A stretch of 64,000 nucleotides of DNA from Bacteroidota bacterium (GTDB taxonomy: Bacteria; Bacteroidota; Bacteroidia; UKL13-3). The notes under the pieces are model-generated. The model did no database searches and was not told the DNA's origin. It was given only the letters and a program-made list of their open reading frames with translations. Where the stretch lies: the NCBI GenBank assembly GCA_030680835.1, contig JAUXUD010000014.1, forward strand, positions 18,965 through 82,964, given 5' to 3'. A program made the translations under genes and the position numbers. Below, one piece after another: positions 3,241-60,640 of the stretch (its first letter is position 1; each line of letters starts with the position of its first letter).

Positions 3241-4091
3241 TGGGCAATGTAAGGATAATACCCAGGCTTGATATAAAAGGCCCTAACCTGGTAAAGGGAA
3301 TCCACTTGGAAGGGTTACGCGTTTTAGGGAAACCAGAATACTTTGCGAAATACTATTATGAAAATGGTGCTGATGAACTGATATTTCAGGATGTTGTCGC
3401 TAGTTTGTATGAAAGAAACAGCTTGCATGAAATAATTTCAAGAACTGCTAGAGAAATATATATCCCGCTTACTGTTGGAGGAGGGCTTCGCACCCTTGAT
3501 GATATTAAAGAAGTTCTGCGAGCAGGAGCCGATAAAGTTTCACTGAATACAGCAGCAATTAAAAATCCGCAGATCATTAAAGATGCCTCCAGAAAATTTG
3601 GGTCATCAACTATTGTTATTGCCATTGAAGCTATAAAACAACCTGATGGTGAGTATTTTGCCTTTATTGATAATGGCAGGGAAGAAACAGGAATTGAAGT
3701 GGTTAAATGGGCAGAACAAGTTGAAGAATTTGGGGCTGGCGAAATTCTCATCACCTCCGTTGACAGAGAAGGTACGGGGGAAGGATTTGATATTGAACTG
3801 ATCAAAAAAATTTCATCCGCAGTTAAAATACCGGTAATCGCACACGGTGGAGCTGCCGATCCCTGTAATATTAAAAAGGCAATTATTGAAGGGGGGGCAG
3901 ATGCTCTGGCAATCGCCTCAATATTTCATTATGCTTCGATGACTAAAATTTTATCAGGTTCTAAAAGTAAGGAGGAAGGGAACATGTCATTCCTCCAGAG
4001 TGGTAGGAAGTTTGGAATCATCGAACATTCAGACATCAAAAAAGTTAAAACCTTACTTAAAGAAAATAGTATCCCATGCAGACCAATTTAA
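3240..4091 (+). CDS. HisF-like imidazole glycerol phosphate synthase cyclase subunit paralogue (polysaccharide-associated, WbuZ-like)
   Basis: RIIPRLDIKG...GADE...GG fits a HisF TIM-barrel. A GTG start at 3240 gives M-GNVRIIPRLD, a typical HisF N-terminus. The track ATG at 3183 lies inside the upstream gene. Confidence 0.75.
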   Translation: MGNVRIIPRLDIKGPNLVKGIHLEGLRVLGKPEYFAKYYYENGADELIFQDVVASLYERNSLHEIISRTAREIYIPLTVGGGLRTLDDIKEVLRAGADKVSLNTAAIKNPQIIKDASRKFGSSTIVIAIEAIKQPDGEYFAFIDNGREETGIEVVKWAEQVEEFGAGEILITSVDREGTGEGFDIELIKKISSAVKIPVIAHGGAADPCNIKKAIIEGGADALAIASIFHYASMTKILSGSKSKEEGNMSFLQSGRKFGIIEHSDIKKVKTLLKENSIPCRPI

Positions 4092-4104
4092 TTATAAATA
4101 ATAA

Positions 4105-4773
4105 ATGAGTTCGAAAGTTGTCATTGTAGATTACGGACTCGGAAATATATTTAGCATCAATCAGGCATGTAAACATGTGGGTTTGGATTCTACAATAACT
4201 TCAGACCCTAAGCACATATTAAACGCAGATGCACTAATTCTGCCTGGTGTTGGGGCCTTTGGTGATGCTATGAATAGCTTGAGAGAAAATAACCTGATAG
4301 AACCGATTCTTGATTTTGTAAAAACTGGTAAACCTTTTTTAGGAATCTGCCTTGGGATGCAATTATTATTTACCGAAAGCGAAGAATTCGGGGAACATAA
4401 AGGATTAAATCTTGTACCGGGGAAAATTGTCCGCTTTCCTGAATTCAATTCAAATTCAAAGGTAGTTCGTGTTCCGCAGATCCAATGGAACCAGATATAT
4501 AAAAATGATCCACTCGTGTGGAATTCCTCTCCCCTAATTGATATCGAAGAAGGTACCTATATGCATTTTGTGCATTCATATTATGCCATACCGCAAAGCA
4601 ATGATAATATCTTATCCTATAGTGAATACGAAGGTGTCAGATACGCGTCAGCTGTAGCTAAAGACAACATTGTTGGCGTACAGTTCCATCCTGAAAAAAG
4701 TGCGGATCAGGGACTCAAAATATACCGGAACTGGTCCAATTATATTAAAAATAAAGTATATCGCTTATGTTAA
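4105..4773 (+). CDS. HisH-like class I glutamine amidotransferase subunit (WbuY-like)
   Basis: VIVDYGLGNIFSINQA and GICLGMQLL (catalytic Cys) are present, and the HPEKS motif sits near the C-terminus. Confidence 0.8.
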   Translation: MSSKVVIVDYGLGNIFSINQACKHVGLDSTITSDPKHILNADALILPGVGAFGDAMNSLRENNLIEPILDFVKTGKPFLGICLGMQLLFTESEEFGEHKGLNLVPGKIVRFPEFNSNSKVVRVPQIQWNQIYKNDPLVWNSSPLIDIEEGTYMHFVHSYYAIPQSNDNILSYSEYEGVRYASAVAKDNIVGVQFHPEKSADQGLKIYRNWSNYIKNKVYRLC

Positions 4774-15662: not shown

Positions 15663-16304
15663 ATGCAAAATCATACCCTTATCAATAAAATCAAGTCTCA
15701 AAATATCGTTTATGATGTAATTCGAGATGACCAAACTGTTATCTCGCAACTATTACCAGTTAATTATAAAATAATCAACGATGACTTTTTAATTAACCAG
15801 CTTACAAAGTGGCGTAATGAATCAATGCGTTTTTTTAAATCCCAGTTTAAATCTACATCAGAAGGCACTAAAACCTGGCTCACAGAAAAAATAGTACCAG
15901 CTAACGATAGAATATTATTTTTAGTGTCCAGTAAAGGAAAGGTAGTTGGACATTTTGGATTATGTAATATAACAGATATTTCAGCAGAATTAGATAATGC
16001 AATACGTGGTGAAATTGGAGGGCCATCAGATTTATTTGCCTTTGTTGAAAAAACTTTATTGAATATATCGTTTACTGAATTAAACGTTGAACAGGTGGTT
16101 GCTAAGGTGTTTTCTAATAATATTTTTGCTTTGCAATTGCATAAGAATCTTGGTTTTCAAGAAAAAAACCGAGTACCACTAAAATTAATAATATCTGAAA
16201 ACAAAAAGGTTTATGAAGAATGTTTAAGAAAAGACGCTAATGTAAATTTTGATTATGCAGAATTAGTTATTAGCAAGTCTGATTATATGGAAATACATAA
16301 GTGA
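15663..16304 (+). CDS. GNAT-family N-acyltransferase (a putative amino-sugar N-acylase)
   Basis: GNAT core pattern (VVGHFGL...LHKNLGF). It is adjacent to the ACP, SDR and ligase genes. Confidence 0.5.
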   Translation: MQNHTLINKIKSQNIVYDVIRDDQTVISQLLPVNYKIINDDFLINQLTKWRNESMRFFKSQFKSTSEGTKTWLTEKIVPANDRILFLVSSKGKVVGHFGLCNITDISAELDNAIRGEIGGPSDLFAFVEKTLLNISFTELNVEQVVAKVFSNNIFALQLHKNLGFQEKNRVPLKLIISENKKVYEECLRKDANVNFDYAELVISKSDYMEIHK

Positions 16305-16354
16305 GCAACTTATTAATAATGAGTGAAACTAATAGTCCATAAAATTTAATTTAG

Positions 16355-16699
16355 ATGAGTAGAAGACCTAAATTTATAAATAAAATGTTACAAAGAGAAA
16401 AAATAAAAGAAATAGTATTAAATACTATCAAGGAGTTTCAAGTTGAACTTGATGATGATAATTTTAATCTCAATGAAGGTGAAACAACACGCTTATTTGG
16501 AGGTGGAGCTTCGCTTGATTCTTTAAGCCTGGTAAGGTTGATTATACAAATTGAAGAAGCTATTGAAGAACATTTAAATATTTCAATTGTATTGGCAAGC
16601 GAACAAGCGATGTCTAGAAGGACTAGTCCTTTTTCACGAATTTCATATCTTATTGACTATATTTATGAGTTAGTTAATACTCAACAAAATGGAAAGTAA
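16355..16699 (+). CDS. acyl carrier protein-like
   Basis: GGGASLDSLSLVRL contains the DSL phosphopantetheine attachment motif. Confidence 0.6.
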   Translation: MSRRPKFINKMLQREKIKEIVLNTIKEFQVELDDDNFNLNEGETTRLFGGGASLDSLSLVRLIIQIEEAIEEHLNISIVLASEQAMSRRTSPFSRISYLIDYIYELVNTQQNGK

Positions 16700-17396
16700 T
16701 AAGGTAATTTTAATCACCGGGAGTCGTAAAGGAATAGGAAGAGGTCTTGCAGAATATTATTTAGAAAAAAAATATTTCGTTGTTGGCTGTAGTAGGCTTG
16801 CATCTGATTTATCTCATTCTAATTATCTTCATTTTACGCTTGATATTTCTGATGAACTTGCAGTAAAAAAGATGATGATATCTGTCAAAGACAAATTTGG
16901 AAAACTTGATATTTTAATTAATAATGCAGGAATTGCATCAATGAATCATGTATTACTTACACCTCTTTCAACAGTTATTAAGTTATTTGAAACTAATTTC
17001 TTAGGGACTTTTTTATGTAGCAGAGAAGCAGTAAAATTGATGCAAAAAAAGAAATTTGGCAGAATAGTCAATCTAACCAGTATAGCTGTCCCATTACAAT
17101 TGGAGGGTGAAGCTATTTATGCTTCATCAAAATCTGCAGTTGAGCAACTGACTAAAAATATGGCTAAAGAATTAGGAGTTTTTGGTATAACAATGAACGC
17201 AATTGGCCCAACACCTATTGAAACTGACTTAATTAAAGCCGTTCCAAAAAATAAGATTGAAGATTTATTAGATAAACAAACTATTAAAAGATATGGAAAC
17301 CTAAATGATATTATCAACATCGTAGAATTCTTTATTTCGCCAAATAGTTCATTTATCACCGGCCAAATTCTTTATCTTGGAGGAATTGTAAAATAA
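16689..17396 (+). CDS. SDR-family oxidoreductase (3-oxoacyl-ACP reductase FabG-like)
   Basis: TGSRKGIGRG (TGxxxGxG) and YASSKSAVEQL (YxxxK). Confidence 0.8.
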   Translation: MESNKVILITGSRKGIGRGLAEYYLEKKYFVVGCSRLASDLSHSNYLHFTLDISDELAVKKMMISVKDKFGKLDILINNAGIASMNHVLLTPLSTVIKLFETNFLGTFLCSREAVKLMQKKKFGRIVNLTSIAVPLQLEGEAIYASSKSAVEQLTKNMAKELGVFGITMNAIGPTPIETDLIKAVPKNKIEDLLDKQTIKRYGNLNDIINIVEFFISPNSSFITGQILYLGGIVK

Positions 17397-38488: not shown

Positions 38489-38636
38489 AGAAAGTAAAAA
38501 GTAAAAAGTAAAAAGTAAAAAGTAAAAAGTAAAAAGTAAAAAGTAAAAAGTGAAAATTGAAAAGTGAAAAGTAAAAAGTAAAAAGTAAAAAGTTAAAAGT
38601 TAAAAGAGAAAAGAAAATAGTGAATAGTAAAAAGTA
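38489..38636. repeat. heptanucleotide tandem array (AAAAGTA)n, about 18 to 20 units with a few variant units
   Basis: Read directly: agtaaaaagtaaaaagtaaaaag... The minus-strand 74-aa ORF here is a repeat artefact (FTFYFLLFTF...). Confidence 0.9.
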
Positions 38637-38719
38637 ATTAGTTTCAGTGCCAACCACATGAATCACTTCACACCTATCCATACTTACTTTTGCCTTTTTA
38701 CTACTCACAAGAATCTAAA

Positions 38720-39133
38720 ATGTCCCCTAAAATAATCAAAGGTAACATTCACTCTGACTCAAGAGGAACATTGTATTATAATAATGATTTTGATGCTTCT
38801 CAAATCAAGCGAATTTATTTTATTGAAAATATAGACACTGATTTTATAAGAGGCTGGCAGGGACATAAGATTGAACAAAGGTGGTTTTCGGCTGTACTTG
38901 GATCTTTTAGAATTAGCATCTTGCCAATAGTGAGTTTTGAATCTTCTACTCAGAAAGTGAAGCCTCTTATATTTGAACTTTTTTCAAAACAACTGGACGT
39001 TTTGCATACACCTGGGGGTTATGTAACCGCCATTCAGGCATTGGAATCAAACGCTAAATTATTGGTAATGGCCGATTACCATTTAGGAGAGATAAATGAC
39101 GAATATCGATTTGAAGTAAAAAGTATAAAGTAA
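38720..39133 (+). CDS. small WxcM-like cupin-domain protein (putative sugar ketoisomerase-like)
   Basis: SDSRGTLYY...IKRIYFI...RGWQGHK resembles the FdtA/WxcM C-terminal domain. The ATG at 38720 is chosen over the TTG at 38690. Confidence 0.45.
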   Translation: MSPKIIKGNIHSDSRGTLYYNNDFDASQIKRIYFIENIDTDFIRGWQGHKIEQRWFSAVLGSFRISILPIVSFESSTQKVKPLIFELFSKQLDVLHTPGGYVTAIQALESNAKLLVMADYHLGEINDEYRFEVKSIK

Positions 39134-39245
39134 AAAGTATAAAGTAATATCAATTCCTTAGTAACTTTTATCTTTTCCCTTTTATCTTTTCCCTTTCCCC
39201 CATTCACTTTTTACTTTTGCCTTTTTACTTTTGCCTTATATCTAA
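39113..39245. repeat. AAAAGTA/TACTTTT-derived repeat block spanning the cupin gene 3' end and the intergenic region
   Basis: aagtaaaaagtataaagtaaaaagtataaagtaa, then tttttacttttgcctttttacttttgcc. The 18-mer TACTTTTGCCTTTTTACT also occurs at 38682-38699 upstream of the gene. Confidence 0.8.
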
Positions 39246-40370: not shown

Positions 40371-40421
40371 GGTGATTAGTGACTTGTAACTGGTGATTAG
40401 TGACTTGTAACTGGTGATTAG
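40371..40421. repeat. 21-bp direct repeat GGTGATTAGTGACTTGTAACT, 2 full copies plus 1 partial
   Basis: Read directly. A complementary or inverted counterpart lies at 40876-40930. Confidence 0.85.
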
Positions 40422-40509
40422 TTTTAGGACATTTTGAACCAGTTAATTTTAAATTAAAGGTTTCTCTATCATGCATTAACCGCGATTCACCAATCACCAA
40501 TCACCCCAT

Positions 40510-40863
40510 ATGACTCATAAAGATTTAGAGGTTTGGAAGAAAAGCATTGATTTTGTTACCCGGATATATGATCTCACAAAAGAATATCCAAAGGAAGAAT
40601 TATTTGGTTTAGTTTCACAAATAAGAAGAGCAGCAGTTTCAATTCCTTCGAATATTGCAGAAGGTGCGTCAAGAAAAGGCAAAACAGAATTCAGGCATTT
40701 TTTATATATTTCATTAGCAAGCGGAGCTGAATTAGAAACACAATTAATAATTTCCGGAAATTTAAATTACATTAGTAAAGAAAAGCAAACTGAATTAATT
40801 GAAGAACTAAATATAATATCAAAAATGCTGCAAGGCTTAATCAAATCACTAAATCTAAACTGA
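40510..40863 (+). CDS. four-helix-bundle protein (23S rRNA intervening-sequence protein family, TIGR02436-like)
   Basis: 117 aa. DLEVWKKSIDFVTRIY...LVSQIRRAAVSIPSNIAEGASR is the hallmark of this family. Confidence 0.8.
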   Translation: MTHKDLEVWKKSIDFVTRIYDLTKEYPKEELFGLVSQIRRAAVSIPSNIAEGASRKGKTEFRHFLYISLASGAELETQLIISGNLNYISKEKQTELIEELNIISKMLQGLIKSLNLN

Positions 40864-40875
40864 ATTCAAATAACT

Positions 40876-40930
40876 AACTACAAGTCACTCAATGGACAAA
40901 CCAGTCACTAATCACCAATCACCAATCACC
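40876..40930. repeat. inverted counterpart of the 40371 repeat plus (AATCACC)3
   Basis: actacaagtcactcaatgg...cagtcactaatcaccaatcaccaatcacc. CACCAATCACCAATCACC also occurs at 40487-40506, immediately before the four-helix-bundle gene. Confidence 0.8.
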
Positions 40931-40942
40931 AAGCTAAAAGTA

Positions 40943-42136
40943 ATGACCGTAGTGGGTACCCGCCCCGAAATAATTCGTTTATCCAGAGTAATGGCTAAAT
41001 TGGATGAATCACCAGCAATTGAACATATAATCGTCCATACCGGCCAAAACTATGATTATGAATTGAATCAGATTTTCTTTGACGATATGGGAATCAGAAA
41101 ACCTGATCATTTTTTAAATGCGGCTGGAGAAACGGCAACTGAAACTATTGGCCAGATTCTGATTAAAATTGATGCGTTACTGGCCCATACAAATCCAGAT
41201 GCATTTTTAGTTTTAGGTGATACTAATTCTTGCCTTTGCGCCATACCAGCAAAGAAAAGGCATATCCCGATTTTCCACATGGAGGCTGGGAATCGTTGTT
41301 TTGATCAACGCGTTCCTGAAGAAACCAATCGAAAAATCGTAGATCATATATCCGATATTAATCTAACCTACAGTGATATTGCCAGAGAGTATTTACTTAG
41401 AGAAGGGTTACCAGCCGATAGAATAATAAAAACAGGTTCTCCCATGTTTGAAGTATTAAATCATTATAAAGCTAAAATTGAATCTTCTGATATTTTAAAC
41501 CGGTTGCATTTAGAGAAAGGTAAATATTTCGTTGTGTCCGCTCACCGTGAAGAAAATATAAACAGTGATAAAAACTTTTTGGGGTTAATAACAAGTTTGA
41601 ATGCTATTGCTGAAAAATATAAATTCCCAATAATTGTAAGTACTCATCCCCGCACACGCATTCGTTTGGAGAAGCTCTCAACAGACAGCAATCAGCGGTC
41701 AGCAGTCAGCAGTCAGCTATCAGAAAATAATAGTCAGATGAAAGCTGACCGCCGAATGCTGATAGCTGACAGCTTGATCCAATGGCAAAAACCAATGGGA
41801 TTTAGTGATTACAATTACCTCCAAATGAACGCCTTTGCAGTTTTATCTGATAGTGGTACGATTTCAGAAGAATCATCCATTTTGAATTTCCCCGCCCTAA
41901 ATATTAGAGATGCACATGAAAGACCTGAAGCTATGGAAGAAACTTCAGTAATGATGATGGGATTGAGTCCAGAAAGAATATTACAAGGTTTGGAACAATT
42001 GAAACATGAAGAATTATTTAATCAACGAATTTATAGACCGGTAGACGACTACTCTATGCCTAATGTTTCAGATAAAATGGTTAGGATTATTTTAAGTTAT
42101 ATAGATTATGTGAAAAGGGTTGTTTGGAATGAATAG
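40943..42136 (+). CDS. UDP-N-acetylglucosamine 2-epimerase, non-hydrolysing (CapG/FnlC/WbjD family). Carries an in-frame palindromic insertion.
   Basis: MTVVGTRPEIIRL...HPRTR. The start is moved to the ATG at 40943. The track start at 40892 translates the flanking repeat as TNHQSPITK. The segment coding STDSNQRSAVSSQLSENNSQMKADRRMLIADS (about 41685-41780) is a DNA palindrome. Confidence 0.8.
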   Translation: MTVVGTRPEIIRLSRVMAKLDESPAIEHIIVHTGQNYDYELNQIFFDDMGIRKPDHFLNAAGETATETIGQILIKIDALLAHTNPDAFLVLGDTNSCLCAIPAKKRHIPIFHMEAGNRCFDQRVPEETNRKIVDHISDINLTYSDIAREYLLREGLPADRIIKTGSPMFEVLNHYKAKIESSDILNRLHLEKGKYFVVSAHREENINSDKNFLGLITSLNAIAEKYKFPIIVSTHPRTRIRLEKLSTDSNQRSAVSSQLSENNSQMKADRRMLIADSLIQWQKPMGFSDYNYLQMNAFAVLSDSGTISEESSILNFPALNIRDAHERPEAMEETSVMMMGLSPERILQGLEQLKHEELFNQRIYRPVDDYSMPNVSDKMVRIILSYIDYVKRVVWNE

Positions 42137-47327: not shown

Positions 47328-48479
47328 ATGTCAAAAATAAAATTTGTAATTATTGGATTTGGGCATATTGGCAAACGCCATGCAACCATTGCGAATGATT
47401 ACCCGGGAGCTGAAGTAGTGGCTGTGGTGGATTTGAATAAAGATGTTGTAAAGCATGAGTTATTTCCTAAGGGTGCACAGTTTTTTGAAAGCATTGAAGC
47501 TTTTATGGGGGCGAAAGTTGCAGCGGATATTGTAACCATAGCAACACCAAATGGGTTTCATTGTCCGTATGCAATTAAGATGCTTGATGTGGGTTACCAT
47601 GTGGTGATTGAAAAACCTATGGGGCTCAGCAAAGCAGAGTGTGAACAGGTAATTTTTAAATCGCTTCAGGTATCCAAACAGGTATTTGTGGTTAAACAAA
47701 ATAGATATAGTCCGCCCAGTAAATGGATGAAGGAGATTGTTGGAAATAAAACAATTGGGGAAGTGTTAATGGTACAGGTTAATTGTTATTGGAATAGGGA
47801 TGAACGATACTATAAGAAGCGAGATCCCGATAGCTATCGGGAGAGAAACGAAATCCTTCGACAAGCTCAGGATGACAGGGAAATGAGAGTGGATATAGAT
47901 AAAAAAACTCATACCTCATACCTAATACCTCATAACTCATCAGACTGGAAAGGAACTTTGGATTTAGACGGTGGTACCCTGTTCACCCAATTCTCGCACT
48001 TCGTGGATATTATGTACTGGGTATTTGGCGATGTGAAAAACATCAAAGCTACCTTCGCCGATTTTAACCATGCTGAGCTTACTGAGTTTGAAGACAGCGG
48101 GGTTATAAATTTTGAGTTTGTAAATGGAGGATTAGGATGTATTAACTTTTCAACTTCTGTATGGGACACCAATATGGAAAGCAGCATTACAGTTGTTGGA
48201 ACAAAGGGAAGTTTTAAAGTAGGCGGACAGTATATGAATGAGGTAGTGTATTGCCATATAAAAGATTATGAAATGCCGGTGCTCCCTCCTACCAATGCGC
48301 CGAATGACTATGGTCCGTTTAAGGGGAGTGCGGCGAATCATCATTTTGTGATTGAGAATGTGGTGAATACTTTGAATGGCAGGGATACGATTACTGCGAA
48401 TGCGTTGGAGGGGTTGAAGGTTGTGGATATAATTGAACGCATCTACGAGCAGAGAGATTTGGCTAAATTAAAGAAATAA
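47328..48479 (+). CDS. UDP-N-acetyl-2-amino-2-deoxyglucuronate 3-dehydrogenase (WbpB/WlbA-like Gfo/Idh/MocA). Carries an in-frame MITE-derived insertion.
   Basis: FVIIGFGHIGKRHA and VVIEKPMG. The segment 47853-47944 matches the intergenic TIR repeat (ccttcgacaagctcaggatgacagg) and codes ...ILRQAQDDREMRVDIDKKTHTSYLIPHNS. Confidence 0.7.
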   Translation: MSKIKFVIIGFGHIGKRHATIANDYPGAEVVAVVDLNKDVVKHELFPKGAQFFESIEAFMGAKVAADIVTIATPNGFHCPYAIKMLDVGYHVVIEKPMGLSKAECEQVIFKSLQVSKQVFVVKQNRYSPPSKWMKEIVGNKTIGEVLMVQVNCYWNRDERYYKKRDPDSYRERNEILRQAQDDREMRVDIDKKTHTSYLIPHNSSDWKGTLDLDGGTLFTQFSHFVDIMYWVFGDVKNIKATFADFNHAELTEFEDSGVINFEFVNGGLGCINFSTSVWDTNMESSITVVGTKGSFKVGGQYMNEVVYCHIKDYEMPVLPPTNAPNDYGPFKGSAANHHFVIENVVNTLNGRDTITANALEGLKVVDIIERIYEQRDLAKLKK

Positions 48480-48480
48480 C

Positions 48481-48560
48481 CCGTTCACGCAGATTCCGCA
48501 GATTTTAGCAGATTCAATCTGCGATAATCTCCATTAATCTGCCAAATCTGCGTGAAAGGA
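48481..48560. repeat. REP-like palindromic element: TTCACGCAGAT (GCAGAT x3) ... (ATCTGC x3) ATCTGCGTGAA
   Basis: Read directly. Related copies are at 50396-50510 and 51025-51100. Confidence 0.85.
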
Positions 48561-48567
48561 TAAATAA

Positions 48568-49149
48568 ATGAATATGAAAAATTATTATTCACACGAAACA
48601 GCTATCATTGATGAAGGCTGTGAGATTGGTGAGGGTGTAAAAATCTGGCACTTCTCACATATTATGACGAATTGTATTATTGGCGAAAAATGCAATATTG
48701 GTCAGAATGTTGTGGTATCGCCTGAAGTTGTTTTGGGGAAAAATGTGAAGGTTCAAAACAATGTAAGTATTTATACGGGTGTTATTTGTGAGGATGATGT
48801 ATTTCTGGGACCGAGCATGGTTTTTACCAATGTGATAAATCCACGGAGTGCGGTGAATCGGAAGAGTGAATATGCAAAAACGGTAGTTAAAAAGGGAGCC
48901 AGTATTGGTGCCAATGTAACGATTGTATGCGGACATGATATTGGTGAGTATGCTTTTATCGGTGCGGGAGCGGTGGTTACCAAAACAGTTCCGGCTTATG
49001 CTCTTGTAGTGGGGAATCCGGCGAAGCAGATTGGTTGGGTATCGGAGTATGGGCATCGGTTGGTTTTTGATGAGAAAGGGAAAGCTTTTTGTATTGAAAC
49101 CAAACAGGAATATGAACTGAAAGACAATGTAGTAAAACGCCTTTTTTAA
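48568..49149 (+). CDS. left-handed beta-helix N-acetyltransferase (WbpD/WlbB-like)
   Basis: Hexapeptide repeats (IGEKCNIGQNVVV..., IGANVTIVCG...). It lies between the WbpB and WbpE homologues. Confidence 0.75.
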   Translation: MNMKNYYSHETAIIDEGCEIGEGVKIWHFSHIMTNCIIGEKCNIGQNVVVSPEVVLGKNVKVQNNVSIYTGVICEDDVFLGPSMVFTNVINPRSAVNRKSEYAKTVVKKGASIGANVTIVCGHDIGEYAFIGAGAVVTKTVPAYALVVGNPAKQIGWVSEYGHRLVFDEKGKAFCIETKQEYELKDNVVKRLF

Positions 49150-49264
49150 TTTTTAAAATTCTTATGCTACAAAGAAACAAAGGAACAAATAGTGACTCGA
49201 AATTTCTTATAGTCGTACTTTGTTTCTTTGTGCCTTTGTAGCAAAAAAAAAGTGAAAACATAAA

Positions 49265-50389
49265 ATGAAAATCCAAATGGTAGACTTAAAAAGTCAATAT
49301 GAAAAAATTAAATCGGAAGTAGATGCGGGTATCCAGGAAGTAATTGATAATACCGCTTTCATTAAAGGTCCGCAGGTAAAGAAGTTTGAAACAGAACTTA
49401 CGGCGTATTTAAATGTAAAGCATGTAATAGCCTGCGCCAACGGAACGGATGCTTTGCAAATAGCTATGATGGCGTTGGAACTGAAACCGGGTGATGAAGT
49501 TATTTTGCCTGCTTTTACATATGTTGCTACAGCGGAGGTGATTGCGTTATTGGGGTTGAAACCAGTAATGGTTGACGTGGAACCGGAGACGTTTTGTATA
49601 AATGTTCAATTAATCGAATCCAAAATTACCCCTAAAACAAAAGCTATTGTTCCAGTGCACTTGTTTGGGCAATGTGCCAATATGGACGCAATTTTAACAA
49701 TTGCCAGCAAGCACAGATTATTTGTAATTGAAGATACTGCACAGGCTTTAGGTTCTGTCTATACTTTTGGCGACCGGAGTAAAAAAAGTGCAGGGTGCAT
49801 GGGTACAATTGGTACTACAAGTTTTTTCCCTTCCAAAAACCTGGGTTGCTATGGGGATGGAGGAGCGTTAATGACGAACGACGATGAACTGGCTAAAAAA
49901 CTTAGAATGGTGGCAAACCATGGCCAGGCAATACAATATAAACATGATTGCATAGGTGTTAATTCAAGGTTGGATACCCTGCAGGCTGCGATATTACTTG
50001 CTAAGCTCCCACATTTGGATGCATATGCAGCAGCACGCCACCAGGCTGCAAACATATATGATCAACTATTGGGAAATCATCCAAAAATAAAAATACCGGC
50101 TCGCAATCCACAATCTACCCATGTGTTTCATCAATATACGATGCAATTAACAGGCGTTGACAGAGACACAGTTAGAAAAGCATTGGCTGATAAAGGAATT
50201 CCATCCATGGTTTATTATCCAATTCCACTTCATCAGCAAAAAGCGTTTTATAATCCCGATTATACCGATGCGGATTTTCCGGTGACGGTTGAGTTATGTA
50301 AGTCGGTTTTATCTTTGCCTATACATACGGAAATGGATGAAGAGATGATTCAATTTATATCCAATAATTTATTGGAGTTGGTTAGTTAG
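49265..50389 (+). CDS. DegT-family aminotransferase (WbpE/WlbC-like)
   Basis: FFPSKNLGCYGDGGALMT (PLP-Lys). Confidence 0.8.
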   Translation: MKIQMVDLKSQYEKIKSEVDAGIQEVIDNTAFIKGPQVKKFETELTAYLNVKHVIACANGTDALQIAMMALELKPGDEVILPAFTYVATAEVIALLGLKPVMVDVEPETFCINVQLIESKITPKTKAIVPVHLFGQCANMDAILTIASKHRLFVIEDTAQALGSVYTFGDRSKKSAGCMGTIGTTSFFPSKNLGCYGDGGALMTNDDELAKKLRMVANHGQAIQYKHDCIGVNSRLDTLQAAILLAKLPHLDAYAAARHQAANIYDQLLGNHPKIKIPARNPQSTHVFHQYTMQLTGVDRDTVRKALADKGIPSMVYYPIPLHQQKAFYNPDYTDADFPVTVELCKSVLSLPIHTEMDEEMIQFISNNLLELVS

Positions 50390-50395
50390 TATACG

Positions 50396-50510
50396 GTTCA
50401 CGCACCCTTCGACAGGCTCAGGGTGACAAAAAGATTAAAGCAGATTATCGGAGATTAATTTCTGCGATAATCTGCTTTAATCTGCGACATCTGCGTGAGT
50501 GTGAAAAATT
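50396..50510. repeat. composite repeat: GTTCACGCA, then a solo MITE TIR (CCTTCGACAGGCTCAGGGTGACA), then ATCTGCG palindromic repeats
   Basis: Read directly. Confidence 0.8.
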
Positions 50511-51730: not shown

Positions 51731-53449
51731 ATGTTGTTTTTGATTGCTTATTTTATTTTTGTTTTTGTTTTGCTGTTTGTTTATGGGGTGCTGCCATTTG
51801 TTTTTTTGAAACAGGTTCCGCCGCGAAATCCGTTTGTGGGTTTTGTTCTTGGGTTTGCAGTGCTGGGGTTTATGAGCATTTTGTTTTGGGTGGGTGGGCC
51901 TGTTAATTTTCTTTGTTTTTGGGTTACGGTTTTGGGGGCTGTTGTTGCACTATGGATGAACCGGGAATATTATTTATTGGCGTTTACGCAATTAATTAAT
52001 TGGGTCAGACAACAAGCCCTTTTTGAAAAGGCATTGATTGGATTGTTGTTAATTGTGATTCTCTACCAAAGTGCGCAAGCACCAAAAATTAATGATATGG
52101 GCATGTATTATTTACAAACCATGCAATGGATGCACAGTTATGGTTTGGTTCATGGGCTTGCTAACCTGCATCCTGCATTGGGATTGGGTTCAGCCTGGCA
52201 TAGCCTTGTGGTTTTATTGGATCCGTTTTCAATTGGATTGGGGCATTTTTGGCAATTAAATGGGGTGTTGCTGTATGTGTTTATTTTGTTTTGTTGGTTT
52301 GAAATTAAACAATATGCTTCTGTTTATTTATGGATTGTATTTATTATTTCTATTCCTGTTTCGTTTATGTATCTTACGGCTCCGAGTCCGGATTTGCCTG
52401 TTTTATTATTGAGTGGGATTTTGTTTTATACTGTTTGGTTTCTTACTGATAAAATACATTGGTTTACACTACTGCTTTTATGTGTATTTATATTTGCCTG
52501 CAAGCCTCCGGCTTTTTTGGCGGTGTTGATGGCTTTTGTAGTTTTTATTAGCATCGTTAAATCAGCAAAAAAAAGAATACTTTTTATTTTTTTTGGATTG
52601 CTTTTGTGTTCATTAGTTTTATATAAAAATTATATTTTATCGGGCTATTTGTTGTACCCTTATAGTAAGCCGGATATTATGGATGTAAGCTGGAAGGTGC
52701 CTGCAGATTGGAATGCAGCCTACACTAAGGGTATTGTTAGTTGGGGATTAAGGGACAAATGGGACTTGGGGGACAAGGGGGACTTATGGGGGAATTATGG
52801 GGGAAATACCAGGTTATGGGTTTGGTTGACACGATTGGGGTATAAGGGGTTTATGAATAAGCTGATTTTTTTGAATTTTTTGTTGGGGCTTGTGAATTTA
52901 TTTTTGGGACTTAAAGCTAAGAAAATATTTTCGAAAGATTATTTGGTTTTGATTGCTATTCTGTTTATTCAAATCATTGAATGGTTGATGTTGAGTCAGT
53001 ATCGGTTGATGTTGCCAGGCAGTTTGGTTTTAGTTGGATTTAATTTTTATTTAATTGTAAATTCATTTAAAATTGAAAATTCATGGCTAACACGATTTAA
53101 TTTATCATTTAAACCTTTGGTTGTTTATGCCCTTATGATGTTTTACGGGCTTGCATTAATTCCTTTTAGTGTATTCTCTAAAGGATCGAGGAACAAAACG
53201 ATTACCCGATTGGACGGGTTTAATAGCAATTATTTGATTGAACCATACAAGGGATTTGTTAATGAAAAAATGGATAGTATAATTGTTGATTCTATGAATA
53301 TTTATTATTATCCCAATCAAACTTATTGCTGGGATTGTGCGATTCCTTGTGTGAGTAATTCACATAGGAAATTTCTGTTTAATAATTTTGAATATACTGT
53401 GAAGCCTTTGGGTACAAGGGTTTCGGAGGGATTTATGTTGATTAAATAG
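51731..53449 (+). CDS. large polytopic membrane protein of unknown function (N-terminal ~400 aa hydrophobic, C-terminal soluble region)
   Basis: Continuous 570-aa ORF. The smaller overlapping + ORFs (51676..51906, 52071..52259) are rejected. Confidence 0.45.
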   Translation: MLFLIAYFIFVFVLLFVYGVLPFVFLKQVPPRNPFVGFVLGFAVLGFMSILFWVGGPVNFLCFWVTVLGAVVALWMNREYYLLAFTQLINWVRQQALFEKALIGLLLIVILYQSAQAPKINDMGMYYLQTMQWMHSYGLVHGLANLHPALGLGSAWHSLVVLLDPFSIGLGHFWQLNGVLLYVFILFCWFEIKQYASVYLWIVFIISIPVSFMYLTAPSPDLPVLLLSGILFYTVWFLTDKIHWFTLLLLCVFIFACKPPAFLAVLMAFVVFISIVKSAKKRILFIFFGLLLCSLVLYKNYILSGYLLYPYSKPDIMDVSWKVPADWNAAYTKGIVSWGLRDKWDLGDKGDLWGNYGGNTRLWVWLTRLGYKGFMNKLIFLNFLLGLVNLFLGLKAKKIFSKDYLVLIAILFIQIIEWLMLSQYRLMLPGSLVLVGFNFYLIVNSFKIENSWLTRFNLSFKPLVVYALMMFYGLALIPFSVFSKGSRNKTITRLDGFNSNYLIEPYKGFVNEKMDSIIVDSMNIYYYPNQTYCWDCAIPCVSNSHRKFLFNNFEYTVKPLGTRVSEGFMLIK

Positions 53450-53450
53450 T

Positions 53451-53602
53451 ATCCTTCGACAGGCTCAGGATGACAAGCCTTCTTGTTATATTTGGCAGTG
53501 ATTTTTGGTGGGATAAATTTTTTGCAAAGCAAAAAATTTATCCCACCAAAAATCACTGCTCTTAATTAATTGCGTATTGTCATCCTGAGCTTGCCGAAGG
53601 AT
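53451..53602. mobile_element. MITE-like non-autonomous palindromic element
   Basis: Terminal inverted repeats ATCCTTCGACAGGCTCAGGATGACAA (53451-53476) and TTGTCATCCTGAGCTTGCCGAAGGAT (53577-53602). They enclose a perfect internal palindrome, gcagtgatttttggtgggataaatttttt-gcaaagc-aaaaaatttatcccaccaaaaatcactgc. Confidence 0.6.
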
Positions 53603-55681: not shown

Positions 55682-56093
55682 GGGAAATGGGACCCTTCGA
55701 CAAGATCAGGATGATATGGGAAATGGGCAGGGTTCAATTTTGATATCAATTAAAATGGGCACGCGCGAGGCTTGCCCCTACGGGATTTTTATTGTGAATA
55801 AATTCGCTATATGAATTTATTATGCCATTACATTATTAATAATCAAATCCTTTTAATTAGATTTATTCTAAATAGTATTTTTTTTTCACATGCTATGCAG
55901 TGAAGATGGTGTGTGCTTATATTCGCGGCACATTAGTAAAAAGCAATAGAGTCTGTCTATAATGTCCTCTGGCTGCGTTATGCTCGTCCCCAAAAATGCT
56001 CATGTACACGAGCACACTGCGCTTTTTGGAAACTCGCATGCCTTGCCAGAGAACATTCTATCCCAGACTCTATACTAATGGACTGACACAAAT

Positions 56094-57417: not shown

Positions 57418-57476
57418 ATTTCTGAACCCAGAACGAATGTTTGTTTCAACAACAATTAACAGGAAAAAAATTATCA

Positions 57477-60400
57477 ATGGAAAATAAAAATCAATATTGG
57501 AGAGGCTTAGAGGAATTAAACAATGATCCCAAATTTTTAGCGGGAAAGAAACGTGAATTTGCAGAAGGCATACCCCTGGAAGATGTGTTTACTGAAGAAG
57601 ATGGTGGGCTGAACTCGAACCGCAGAGATTTTTTGAAATATTTCGGTTTTGGAATTTCTGCAGTTGCATTGGCAGCCTGTAATAAAACTCCCATTAAAAA
57701 TGCAATCCCCTATATTATAAAACCCGAAAATATTACTCCGGGTACCCCCAACTGGTATGCATCCACCTGCAATGCATGTGCTGCCAATTGCAGTATATTG
57801 GTTAAAACCCGTGAAGGCCGTCCGATTAAAATTGAAGGCAATGCGGAGTCGCCGGTTTTTAAAGGAGCAACCTGCGGCATGGGCCAGGCAAGCCTTTTGG
57901 GCTTATATGATAATGAGCGTTTACGCAAACCCAAAGCAAAAGGGAATGATGTGAGCTGGGAAACATTGGATGCTGAAATAAAAACGGCTTTGGCCGGATC
58001 AAAAAATATCAGGTTAATTAGTGGTACGGTAAACAGTCCCTCTACCAAAAAAGCCATAGCTGAATTCACAGCAAAATATCCTTCCACACAACATATTCAA
58101 TACGAAGCAAACTCGATGGGTGCGCTTGCGGAAGCAACCAAACGTGCATTTGGTAAAGCAGTAGTTCCCGGATATCGTTTTGATAAAGCAAATGTAATTG
58201 TAAGTTTTGGGGCAGACTTTTTAGGTACCTGGATTTCGCCGGTAGAATATACCAAACAATGGACGGTTAACCGGAGACCGGAAAACAAAAACATGAGCCG
58301 CCATATTCAATTGGAATCGTATCTTTCGTTAAGCGGTTCGAATGCCGATGTGCGTTATCCGATAAAACCGTCGGCTGAAGGTGCATATATTATCAGCTTA
58401 TATAACCGCATTGCTTCTTTAGCAGGTGCTCCCCAATTGGGCACCATGCCTGCCGTTGAATTGCCTTTAGATGGAATTACTACCATGGCCAAAGAATTAT
58501 GGGCAGCCAAAGGCCAGTCATTAGTAGTTTGTGGTTCCAATAATATTGATCATCAGTTATTGGTTCATGCCATTAATAATATGCTTGGAAATATTGGCAA
58601 TACAGTTGATTTAAACAACTACAGCAACCAGCATTATAGCGATGATGCTGCCTTTGAAACATTCGCAAAAGAACTGGAAAGCGGTGTTGTAGATGCAGTT
58701 ATTTTTTATAATACCAATCCGGTTTACAGTTATTATAACGGAGCCAAACTGGCTGCTTCCATAAAGAAAGCCAAGGTAAGTATTGCCAGCAATACAAACC
58801 TGGATGAAACTTCAGAGAATTGCCAGTACAATGCACCTGATCATCATTTTCTGGAAGCATGGAATGACAATGAACCTAAGGCAGGGTATTTCACATTTAC
58901 ACAACCCAGCATTTCAAATGTTTTTCAAACCAGGCAGATGCAGGAAAGTTTATTGAACTGGGCCGGAAATACAAGTAACTATTACGACTATTTAAAAAAC
59001 AACTGGGCATCACGCTTAAGTGGTGAAACTTGGGTGAAGGCCATTCATGATGGTTTTTACATACAGCCTGTTGCCGCTTCAAACACCAGCTTTAACGCAG
59101 ATTTAAATGCTGCTGTGAGTCCGGCTTACTCGGTTTATACCACAGCGAAAACAAAATTAGAGCTTAAGTTATATTCTAAAATAGGCGTTCGTGATGGTTC
59201 AAACGGACATAACCCCTGGTTGCAGGAATTGCCTGATCCGATTAGTAAAGTATGCTGGGATAATTATGCATGCATAGGAAATGCAACAGCAAAAGAACTG
59301 AATATAAAAGATGGTGACCTGATTAATATTAATTTAAAAGGTTCAAAAATTGAAGCAGTACCGGTTTTGGTTCAACCCGGACAACCCAATAATGTGATAG
59401 CCCTGGCAATTGGTTACGGACGCACCAGCGGCGGAAAAGCAGGTAAGAATGTAGGTAAGAATGCATATCCTGCAAGCAGCTTTATGAATTCTTTTTCTTT
59501 TATTAATACGGATATTACTATTGAAAAAGCAGATGGTGAATATGAACTGGCACATACCCAAACTCACCATACCATTGAAGGAAGAAATCTGATTAAAGAA
59601 ACTTCATTGAATGAGTATAATAAAGATAACAAATCGGATAACCAGGATACCCATAAAGTAATTAAAGAGCAAGGCAATTTGATTACACTTTGGGATGAAC
59701 GCGACCATAAAGGTCATCGTTGGGCTATGGCCGTTGACATGAACAAATGCACAGGTTGCGGCTCATGTGTGGTGAGCTGTAATGCCGAAAATAATGTTCC
59801 TGTTGTAGGTAGAAAAGAAGTATTGGTAAGCAGGGAAATGCACTGGATTCGTATTGACCGCTACTATCGTTTTAGTAATGCTACCGATAATAAAATTACA
59901 AAGGAAGACGATTACAATAAAGAAAATTCGGGCATTAATTTCGAGAATGTAAGTGTTACGTTTCAACCGATGTTATGTCAGCAATGCGGACATGCACCTT
60001 GCGAAACGGTGTGCCCGGTAATTGCAACTGTACATAGCAGTGAAGGTTTGAACCATATGGCGTATAACCGTTGTGTGGGAACCCGCTATTGTGCGAATAA
60101 CTGTCCGTATAAAGTACGCAGGTTTAACTGGTTTAAATACCGTGCCAACGATCAGTTTGATTTTAACTTCAACAACGATTTGGGACGTATGGTTATTAAT
60201 CCGGATGTTACGGTTCGGTCGCGCGGGGTAATGGAAAAATGTTCATTCTGTGTACAAAGAATACAGGCAGGTAAATTAATGGCCAAAATGGAAAACAGAA
60301 TTGTAAAAGATGGAGATATAAAAACAGCCTGTCAGCAATCATGCCCTGCCGATGCGATTATTTTTGGAGATATCAATGATGAGAAAAGTGAGGTAAGAAA

Positions 60401-60512
60401 ATATTTTGAGAATGACCGTTCGTTCTTTTTATTGGAAGAATATAATGTTCAGCCTTCGGTAACGTATTTGACGAAGGTGAGGAATGTTGGGGAGAAATTG
60501 GTTAACACCTAG
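57477..60512 (+). CDS. actB: alternative complex III subunit ActB (molybdopterin-oxidoreductase-like plus 4Fe-4S fusion)
   Basis: Tat motif RRDFLKYFGFG. C-terminal Cys clusters (CTGCGSCVVSC, CQQCGHAPC). About 1000 aa. The ATG at 57477 gives MENKNQYWRGLEEL. Confidence 0.85.
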   Translation: MENKNQYWRGLEELNNDPKFLAGKKREFAEGIPLEDVFTEEDGGLNSNRRDFLKYFGFGISAVALAACNKTPIKNAIPYIIKPENITPGTPNWYASTCNACAANCSILVKTREGRPIKIEGNAESPVFKGATCGMGQASLLGLYDNERLRKPKAKGNDVSWETLDAEIKTALAGSKNIRLISGTVNSPSTKKAIAEFTAKYPSTQHIQYEANSMGALAEATKRAFGKAVVPGYRFDKANVIVSFGADFLGTWISPVEYTKQWTVNRRPENKNMSRHIQLESYLSLSGSNADVRYPIKPSAEGAYIISLYNRIASLAGAPQLGTMPAVELPLDGITTMAKELWAAKGQSLVVCGSNNIDHQLLVHAINNMLGNIGNTVDLNNYSNQHYSDDAAFETFAKELESGVVDAVIFYNTNPVYSYYNGAKLAASIKKAKVSIASNTNLDETSENCQYNAPDHHFLEAWNDNEPKAGYFTFTQPSISNVFQTRQMQESLLNWAGNTSNYYDYLKNNWASRLSGETWVKAIHDGFYIQPVAASNTSFNADLNAAVSPAYSVYTTAKTKLELKLYSKIGVRDGSNGHNPWLQELPDPISKVCWDNYACIGNATAKELNIKDGDLININLKGSKIEAVPVLVQPGQPNNVIALAIGYGRTSGGKAGKNVGKNAYPASSFMNSFSFINTDITIEKADGEYELAHTQTHHTIEGRNLIKETSLNEYNKDNKSDNQDTHKVIKEQGNLITLWDERDHKGHRWAMAVDMNKCTGCGSCVVSCNAENNVPVVGRKEVLVSREMHWIRIDRYYRFSNATDNKITKEDDYNKENSGINFENVSVTFQPMLCQQCGHAPCETVCPVIATVHSSEGLNHMAYNRCVGTRYCANNCPYKVRRFNWFKYRANDQFDFNFNNDLGRMVINPDVTVRSRGVMEKCSFCVQRIQAGKLMAKMENRIVKDGDIKTACQQSCPADAIIFGDINDEKSEVRKYFENDRSFFLLEEYNVQPSVTYLTKVRNVGEKLVNT

Positions 60513-60513
60513 A

Positions 60514-60640
60514 GACGCCATAAATGGCGTCTGTACGGGTGGAAGCGGAACATTGGATGGGAAATGGGGTGGAAGCCGAATATTGGGTGGTAACATGTAA
60601 AGACGCCATTTATGGCGTCTCCTGGTGGAAGCCAAATATT
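60514..60640. repeat. twin 20-nt hairpins (AGACGCCATAAATGGCGTCT and AGACGCCATTTATGGCGTCT) flanking three approximately 22-bp direct repeats (GGTGGAAGCnnAAnATTGGnT) in the actB-actC spacer
   Basis: Read directly. Confidence 0.85.

Follow-up and report, generated by a model that had tools for sequence, protein, structure and literature searches.

Introduction

Cyanobacterial genomes reportedly contain heptamer repeats known as STRRs, repetitive sequences that are short and repeated in tandem, a description that goes back to Mazel and colleagues in 1990. In heterocystous cyanobacteria, STRRs are also said to occur inside the RNase P RNA gene (Vioque, in 1997). Here, we describe an inverted pair of heptamer arrays inside the coding sequence of a non-hydrolysing UDP-GlcNAc 2-epimerase of the WecB/CapG/FnlC type. 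The gene lies in a stretch of 64,000 nt (hereafter the window) of contig JAUXUD010000014.1, from a Bacteroidota metagenome-assembled genome (MAG; GCA_030680835.1). The array pair and the STRRs are both built of tandem 7-nt units. STRRs have many unit types per genome, are mostly intergenic and are tolerated in a permissive site of a functional gene, whereas the present array belongs to a Bacteroidota MAG and is part of the translated sequence of an enzyme. To our knowledge, its unit, AGCRGTC, is not among the three canonical STRR units.

The intervening sequences of 23S rRNA are hairpins at a permissive point of an essential gene, and occur with or without an open reading frame (ORF) of the family PF05635. 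The epimerase hairpin resembles them in that it occupies a permissive site of a gene, and a neighbouring cassette has a PF05635 gene in its stem loop. The epimerase hairpin differs from them in that it is without an ORF and lies in a protein-coding gene, and nothing points to excision by RNase III. The context of PF05635 and Avd proteins is covered elsewhere (PMC10053308).

Heptamer arrays are described as the commonest long simple-sequence repeats (LSSRs) in many prokaryotes (Mrazek 2007, as cited in PMC4679880). In Xanthomonas, GGGAATC arrays are dispersed over the genome and form 70–75 convergent pairs per genome with stem-loop potential. ORFs are overlapped by 7–11% of the repeats in Xanthomonas and, in Nostoc PCC 7120, by approximately one third of the GGGGAYT arrays (Rehm et al. 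2015, PMC4692102). These units are G-rich and have been studied as quadruplex formers, whereas the epimerase unit is not G-rich. Unlike in the present case, neither a translated inverted pair within the loop of a conserved enzyme nor a hot spot that recurs among orthologues is reported for those repeats (PMC4692102). Direct repeats of TAACTGA are distributed patchily over several phyla, with occurrences in Beggiatoaceae, Cyanobacteria and five Bacteroidetes (MacGregor 2015, PMC4679880). These repeats can be translated in one orientation (TCAGTTA, giving LSVISYQ), while the other orientation contains stops in all frames, and the copies within ORFs are found at protein peripheries (PMC4679880). 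Unlike the epimerase arrays, nearly all TAACTGA repeats are direct (one indirect repeat is reported) and most lie just upstream of start codons. Both orientations are translated in the epimerase, which needs a stop-removing substitution.

Rickettsia palindromic elements, as they are summarised in PMC10969869 from Ogata et al. (2000), are approximately 100–150 bp long and lie in frame in unrelated housekeeping genes at sites compatible with fold and function. In that summary they are near-identical, dispersed families with a conserved peptide, in contrast to the epimerase insert, which is a simple array with no second copy in the window and no peptide family found. The epimerase segment is, in our assessment, probably an STRR/LSSR-type inverted heptamer array pair that is tolerated and translated in a permissive loop of the enzyme.

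Results

Structure of the array pair

The left arm of the epimerase hairpin is a tandem array of 7-nt units (AGCRGTC) and the right arm is an array of the same type in reverse complement (Table 1). The sequence from 41686 to 41775 reads cagcaatcagcggtcagcagtcagcagtcagctatcag (left arm), aaaataatagtcaga (loop) and tgaaagctgaccgccgaatgctgatagctgacagct (right arm). Tandem Repeats Finder assigns a period of 7 to positions 41678–41717 (5.7 copies, 78% matches) and to positions 41735–41774. In the left arm, the unit pattern has six overlapping matches (0.02 expected). The pair contains at least three tandem 7-nt units with imperfect copies allowed, as in the STRR/LSSR class, and its arrays lie on opposite strands, close together and with stem-loop potential, as in a convergent array pair.

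The arms found by an inverted-repeat finder are 36–37 nt long and 76–78% complementary. Those at 41687–41722 and 41739–41774 are 36 nt long, 16 nt apart and 78% complementary, and a pair-by-pair listing gives 28 paired positions out of 36 and eight mismatches. The RNA fold of the 111-nt stretch has an energy of −40.2 kcal/mol, compared with −24.9 ± 3.5 for dinucleotide shuffles (z = −4.45), and none of the 200 shuffles folds as well. With DNA parameters, the same stretch has a z of −3.78. The GC content of the insert segment is 47%, compared with 36% in the remainder of the gene.

Position in the epimerase and reading frame

The host ORF matches Pfam PF02350 (Epimerase_2) with E = 2e-89 (300 bits, cut-off 30.6), and the match is near full-length (profile positions 2–346 of 347). 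Its closest solved structures are PDB 4hwg (E = 4e-127) and CapG 7ya2 (E = 1e-120), and its named relatives belong to the Saprospiraceae/Saprospirales. There are 215 invariant columns common to the window epimerase and 27 orthologues. The ORF is intact and keeps all family-invariant residues. The gene is probably functional. NCBI annotates a protein of 403 aa (MDP1725494.1, from a Bacteroidota MAG) that starts 11 codons downstream of the start of the longest ORF, and one protein of the comparison set (P0001) is 100% identical to the window epimerase.

In HMMER alignments to the two structures, the epimerase breaks at query residues 263→297 (4hwg) and 261→292 (7ya2), so that residues 264–296 and 262–291, respectively, are unaligned. 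The stretch between HPRT and (I/V)Q..KP has 50 aa in the window, compared with 24 aa in 109 of 124 homologous loci. These loci are from among the matches listed and are mostly distant homologues that lack an insert, while the informative close orthologues come from exact-protein look-ups. The net gain over the 24-aa ground state of the loop is approximately 26 aa (78 nt). In the AlphaFold2 model, the predicted local distance difference test score (pLDDT) is below 50 at residues 267–289, between a helix (253–263) and a strand (296–299). The insert would be placed in a surface loop of the C-terminal domain, between a helix and the next strand, a placement that depends mainly on comparative tolerance.

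An earlier note on this DNA had described a long, imperfect palindrome that was inserted in frame between the HPRTR..LEKL and LIQWQKP blocks and left the ORF intact. The DNA and the peptide it quoted lie where it placed them, the peptide exactly, and both the palindrome (36-nt arms, 78% complementary, and the fold) and the in-frame insertion (the breaks against the PDB structures and the 24-aa versus 50-aa loops) are confirmed. Its account did not include the 7-nt tandem build of the two arms.

Across the insert, only the epimerase frame is open among the six frames. Read in any of its three frames, (GCAGTCA)n is free of stops, and its complement contains one TGA per 21 nt. The left arm is likewise open in all three frames of the + strand. 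With an in-silico right arm that complements the left arm perfectly, exactly one in-frame stop appears, at 41753–41755 (MIADC, stop, LLTADC). In the window, this position is a CGA codon, and in the homologous hairpin of an independent metagenome (L169) the corresponding unit has CAA. The CGA at the would-be stop and the single open frame argue for a translated stretch in which the perfection of the hairpin is limited by selection on the ORF.

It is very improbable that the insert is a mis-assembled repeat, or a meaningless low-complexity stretch in an inactivated gene. Heptamer arrays do break assemblies, and a contig of the independent Logan assembly (SRR13727518, L168) stops approximately 90 nt upstream of the TCACCAA array beside the neighbouring PF05635 gene. 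However, the DNA of the epimerase gene in this assembly is identical to that of the window, and two assemblies with identical DNA make mis-assembly unlikely. The homologous insert in L169, the intact ORF with its family-invariant residues and its full-length Pfam match also stand against an artefact, and the stop-avoiding CGA argues for continuing selection on the frame.

Table 1. Coordinates of the epimerase array pair, of other repeats in the window and of loci with a comparable gene arrangement. Positions are those of the window; empty cells have no entry.
Feature	Position	Strand	Basis or remark
Non-hydrolysing UDP-GlcNAc 2-epimerase (WecB/CapG/FnlC type)	40892–42136	+	Longest ORF, 414 aa
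N-terminal extension array (ACCAATC/ACCAGTC), read as PVTNHQSPIT	40898–40935	+	Tandem Repeats Finder; inverted repeats with 40371–40424
Variable/insert segment, residues S263–S294 (STDSNQRSAVSSQLSENNSQMKADRRMLIADS)	41678–41773	+	PDB alignment break, loop survey, AlphaFold2, GC
Left arm, tandem heptamers AGCAATC AGCGGTC AGCAGTC AGCAGTC AGCTATC AG	41686–41723	+	Tandem Repeats Finder, pattern scan, period-7 scan, heptamer parsing
Hairpin loop aaaataatagtcaga, 15 nt, no ORF	41724–41738	+	Fold; pairwise alignment with L169
Right arm, heptamers AGCTGAC CGCCGAA TGCTGAT AGCTGAC AGC, reverse-complement type	41739–41775	+	Inverted repeats I1–I4; Tandem Repeats Finder
CGA codon, Arg288	41753–41755	+	C41753 mismatched in stem opposite A41708; replaces would-be TGA
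(AAAGTAA)21 array	38491–38637		Pairs with 38681–38708
Array	39114–39147		Pairs with 39165–39243; 39105–39250 fold z = −3.8
(GGTGATT AGTGACT TGTAACT) x2.5 array	40371–40424	+	Pairs with 40487–40507 and 40898–40935; left arm around PF05635 gene
REP-like 23-mer, copy 1	47855–47877		
REP-like 23-mer, copy 2	50406–50428		
REP-like 23-mer, copy 3	53453–53475		
REP-like 23-mer, copy 4	53578–53600	−	
REP-like 23-mer, copy 5	55694–55716		
PF05635 gene between inverted arrays			Window, L001, L005, L009, L039, L053, L092, L108, L121, L171
PF05635 gene between inverted arrays, plasmid loci			L172–L174, L178, L179

Comparison with orthologues

The loop can be measured in 118 of the 120 closest proteins. 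In 63 of these 118 the loop is longer than 24 aa (26–76 aa), and the remaining 55 have no insert. Most of the inserts are heptapeptide-periodic, with the peptides QSPITNH (units ACCAATC/ACCAGTC), SQITDHR (AGATCAC), and SVISNQS and LSVNSEQ (ATCAGTN). Hairpins are formed by at least four of the inserts in these orthologues. Within groups that share the same flanks, loop lengths form series with steps of 7 aa (39/46/53/60, 35/42/49 and 45/52). A step of 7 aa corresponds to three units (21 nt), which is the smallest change that keeps the frame. The copy number thus varies by whole units among relatives.

The nearest orthologues (L081, L085 and L086; 80–83% amino acid identity) have direct (CCARTCA)n arrays in the same loop. 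Their unit is one base from the window unit GCARTCA, and the flanks are homologous (..EKL..SN and ..[ND]SLIQW). These direct-array inserts fold no better than shuffles. The insert in L169 (P0002) is a homologous hairpin with a fold z of −4.0. Common to it and the window insert are AGCAATC units, a loop core (gaaaataat) and the end of the right arm (GCTGA[TA]AGCTGA[CT]AGCTTGAT). Counted from the common SN onward, it is exactly 7 aa shorter than the insert in the window. The conserved parts of the two genes are 74–77% identical in DNA. The pairing register differs between the two hairpins and no covariation is claimed. Hairpin inserts made of other units are found in the same loop in L005 (z = −5.1), L171 (z = −4.9) and L170 (z = −3.0). 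The left arms of these three (ATCAGTN; peptides SVISNQS and LSVNSEQ) resemble TCAGTTA. Arrays of this unit family occupy the loop in an entire clade of Saprospiraceae-like Bacteroidota.

The recurrence of hairpins raises the question of whether the hairpin is under selection as a cis-acting structure of RNA or DNA (for processing or stability of the polycistronic mRNA, a translational pause or the binding of a repeat-binding protein) that the coding sequence merely accommodates. Hairpin potential is kept in the window and L169 despite approximately 25% divergence in gene DNA, L005, L170 and L171 also have hairpins in this loop, and the intergenic arrays of the same genome are likewise arranged as hairpins. 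The window hairpin is also present despite the cost of the stop-avoiding mismatch. Such a structure nevertheless seems unlikely. Many close orthologues have direct, non-hairpin arrays or no insert at all (no insert in 55 of 118 proteins and 109 of 124 loci), the pairing register is not the same in the window and L169, and neither the sequence nor its position within the loop is conserved. Among the Rfam 15 covariance models, the best match to the hairpin has 19 bits, compared with gathering scores of 60–61. The sense strand of the hairpin has no U-tract of an intrinsic terminator, and a weak terminator-like site on the antisense strand of the loop is no more than chance would give.

Arrays also occur at other sites in the epimerase, namely the N-terminus and a second loop near residue 375 (P0051, P0061, P0081, P0112 and L039). 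In L039, the second loop contains a direct, in-frame AGCGGTC/AGCAGTC array (4020–4135) whose units are those of the left arm in the window. A direct, in-frame AGCGGTC/AGCAGTC array is also found in L023 (2160–2205), inside a loop of the neighbouring FnlB-like reductase gene. A further in-frame heptamer array is present at a third site in L171.

Heptamer arrays elsewhere in the window

At one threshold, the window contains six period-7 arrays, compared with zero to two arrays for periods 5, 6 and 8–11 and none in shuffles. Period 7 is thus over-represented relative to neighbouring periods within the window. Most of the other period-7 arrays have an inverted partner nearby (Table 1), and the epimerase pair is an intragenic representative of a general feature of the genome, inverted heptamer arrays. 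The arrays at 38491–38708 and 39114–39243 are intergenic and consist of (AAAGTAA)21 and (AAGTAAA/AAGTATA)n, respectively. Each is followed 20–45 nt on by an array of complementary units (CTTTTAC/CTTTTCC), and these complementary arrays extend to, or into, the start of the next gene.

An ACCAATC array, read in frame, makes up the opening 11–17 codons (MDKPVTNHQSPITKLKV) of the epimerase ORF, at 40892–40942. The N-terminal extension of the epimerase is the right arm of the array pair around the upstream four-helix-bundle gene, read in frame. By comparison with the PDB homologues, translation may in fact start at or near M18. When (QSPITNH)6 is the query, most matches are short, spurious ORFs, and they come from Sphaerospermopsis, Dolichospermum, Anabaena, Prosthecochloris, Chitinophagales and Paludibacteraceae. 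The occurrence of these matches in several phyla indicates that the ACCAATC array type is common to them.

Dispersed repeats and the insert in a wbpB-like gene

The wbpB-like ORF (47328–48479), which encodes an oxidoreductase of the Gfo/Idh/MocA type, has a clean, in-frame insert of 39 aa (47817–47933). In the alignment to PDB 3q2i, the break at query 163→203 brings no advance in the chain, which remains at position 173. The insert is composite, with a small palindrome (gatcccgatagctatcggg), a 23-mer that resembles repetitive extragenic palindromic (REP) sequences and a (CTCATAC)4.7 array. It folds no better than shuffles (z = −0.74). The REP-like 23-mer (CCTTCGACAAGCTCAGGATGACA; CCTTCGACAGGCTCAGGATGACA) has five copies in the window at no more than three mismatches, compared with zero expected, and the copy inside the wbpB-like ORF encodes ILRQAQDD. 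A common family for the epimerase and wbpB-like inserts was considered and rejected, because their composition differs and the wbpB-like insert is not a hairpin. All that they have in common is that they contain heptamer arrays. Across the lineage, such arrays invade permissive loops of proteins.

These observations bear on the proposal that the epimerase segment is a discrete, mobile palindromic element, such as a miniature inverted-repeat transposable element (MITE), a REPIN or an element of the Rickettsia palindromic type, that transposed in frame and is one copy of a genome-wide, protein-invading family. The palindromic architecture of the segment and its GC content above that of the host gene agree with this, as does the in-frame insertion into an ORF that is still intact, which is MITE-like. 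The in-frame insert in the wbpB-like gene contains a dispersed repeat, and in-frame Rickettsia palindromic elements, as far as they are described in PMC10969869, offer a precedent. The right arm also has a 17-nt exact match (GCTGATAGCTGACAGCT) to an array downstream of the four-helix-bundle gene in a metagenome locus (L108), and the presence of one unit type at several gene sites per genome keeps the proposal alive.

The remaining evidence makes a mobile element quite unlikely. No second copy of either arm is found in the 64-kb window at up to three mismatches. The insert peptide (33 aa) has no phmmer match at E ≤ 0.001 among 1.84 billion representative proteins; a query this short has limited power, with which near-identical copies would still have been seen. 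By inspection, there are no terminal inverted repeats and no target-site duplication beyond the array, and the palindrome fades into its flanks (AAGCT...AGCTT). Both arms are simple 7-nt arrays. At the identical site, the nearest orthologues have non-palindromic arrays of a one-nucleotide variant unit that differ by unit number, a pattern that is graded rather than a block. The wbpB-like insert is unrelated in sequence, save for a different heptamer array, and has no hairpin.

The earlier note had taken the epimerase palindrome for a repeat element that had integrated, a view not borne out by the missing second copy, peptide match and terminal or target repeats, nor by the heptamer build of the arms. 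It had correctly identified the in-frame insert in the wbpB-like gene. Its suggestion of a genome-wide family of protein-invading palindromic elements is supported only in part, through heptamer arrays that invade permissive loops, and is overstated, as the two inserts are unrelated and the wbpB-like one is not a hairpin.

Several further repeats are present in this part of the window. A perfect inverted repeat of 31 nt with a 3-nt loop (GCAGTGATTTTTGGTGGGATAAATTTTTTGC and its complement) is found at 53495–53559, just past an ORF that ends at 53449. This palindrome is nested between two inverted copies of the REP-like 23-mer. Intergenic hairpins at 48481–48559, 49143–49265 and 50432–50483 have fold z values of −5.3 to −7.4. 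Their units are of the GCAGATT type with a period of about 10, or ACAAAGAA with a period of 8, and they may be terminators or a second repeat family. At 60498–60635, at the end of a 1023-aa ORF (57441–60512), two 39-nt arms with 85% complementarity and a spacing of 60 nt form an inverted repeat, and each arm holds a small palindrome (AGACGCCATAAATGGCGTCT).

PF05635 genes between inverted arrays

Directly upstream of the epimerase, a gene of 117 aa (40510–40863) encodes a PF05635 four-helix-bundle protein (23S rRNA intervening-sequence protein, or bAvd-like) and is flanked by inverted heptamer arrays. The arms around this gene (40371–40424 and 40898–40935) are inverted repeats of 33–34 nt with 76–82% complementarity. 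A cassette with a PF05635 ORF between inverted arms is thus present at 40371–40935, and not in the epimerase hairpin with its 15-nt loop.

The same association is found at other loci (Table 1). Within 200 nt of a four-helix-bundle gene, the density of period-7 arrays is 3.67 per kb, compared with 0.055 per kb elsewhere (approximately 67-fold), in 172 sequences (171 fetched loci and the window) that are all epimerase neighbourhoods and hence a biased sample. In 13 of 17 loci, the upstream and downstream flanks of the four-helix-bundle gene are complementary beyond all 100 shuffles. The L108 arrays around the gene are (GCTATCA)n and the GCTGATAGCTGACAGCT.. array that matches the right arm.

In a plasmid collection, homologues of the four-helix-bundle protein occur in 41 records, mostly from Nostocales, plus Riemerella. 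The gene is bracketed by inverted heptamer arrays in five of eight unrelated plasmid contexts (Nostoc, Anabaena, Geminocystis and Riemerella). For example, the arrays are GGGAACA/TGTTCCC in Nostoc sp. C052, and in Anabaena sp. 90 the cassette lies between cas6 and cas4. All five arrays of the Anabaena plasmid lie within 750 nt of the four-helix-bundle gene. The Nostoc plasmid (pC052_D of Nostoc sp. C052, L180) has eight arrays in 40 kb, including a gene-less inverted pair, AAGGCAG / CTTCTGC (15938–16070), that lies inside an annotated coding sequence (15879–16895) and is a cyanobacterial parallel to the epimerase pair. Gene-less inverted pairs thus occur alongside gene-carrying ones.

We found no paper that links PF05635 to heptamer repeats, and no association of heptamer repeats with mobile elements is reported in Rehm et al. 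2015 (PMC4692102). By analogy, the gene-less and the gene-carrying hairpins may be linked. It is possible, although we consider it doubtful, that inverted heptamer hairpins are a mobile or templated repeat system of Bacteroidota and Cyanobacteria. The form with a PF05635 gene in the loop would then be the loaded one, the epimerase hairpin would be a gene-less, solo derivative that had reached a permissive protein loop by landing or by seeding, and the four-helix-bundle protein would bind or propagate the arrays. This reading has two analogies: the intervening sequences of 23S rRNA, which may have an ORF or lack one, and insertion sequences as compared with MITEs. The link between PF05635 and heptamers is a lead, not a result.

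Discussion

Under the preferred reading, a tolerated and translated array pair, array growth and shrinkage would occur by replication slippage. Strand or template switching at the array, or seeding from a different inverted array, would be the source of the inverted arm. Variants that break the frame or create stops would be lost through purifying selection on the enzyme. The 26–30 encoded residues would be tolerated as a loop, disordered or loosely helical, that plays no part in catalysis.

Several points weigh against this reading. Slippage and template switching in this organism are proposed from the comparison of sequences. The AlphaFold2 model is of moderate quality only (mean pLDDT 69). 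That a hairpin is kept in two lineages with approximately 25% DNA divergence, and recurs in L005, L171 and L170, hints at its maintenance or regeneration rather than simple neutrality. The occurrence of one heptamer type at several gene sites per genome suggests active seeding or homogenising, rather than purely local slippage.

The sequence class to which the epimerase pair belongs is known. What is new is a translated, inverted heptamer-array pair in a conserved enzyme loop that is a recurrent hot spot in its lineage. In cyanobacteria, Xanthomonas and Beggiatoaceae, heptamer arrays are mostly viewed as curiosities between genes; in Saprospiraceae-like Bacteroidota, conserved enzymes are colonised by them as well. 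This colonisation is repeated at the same permissive sites (the N-terminus, one loop and a second loop), even in the form of hairpins with both repeat strands translated. The inserts are a natural map of the insertion-tolerant loops in a GT-B-fold epimerase, and the window hairpin is a clean case of coding constraint shaping a DNA hairpin, through one stop-avoiding mismatch. They are also a warning for annotation, as repeats are the source of low-complexity extensions at the N-terminus and of loop inserts such as QSPITNH. If the link with PF05635 is true, it would bring a testable candidate protein partner to the question of how heptamer repeats arise and what they do, which dates back to 1990.

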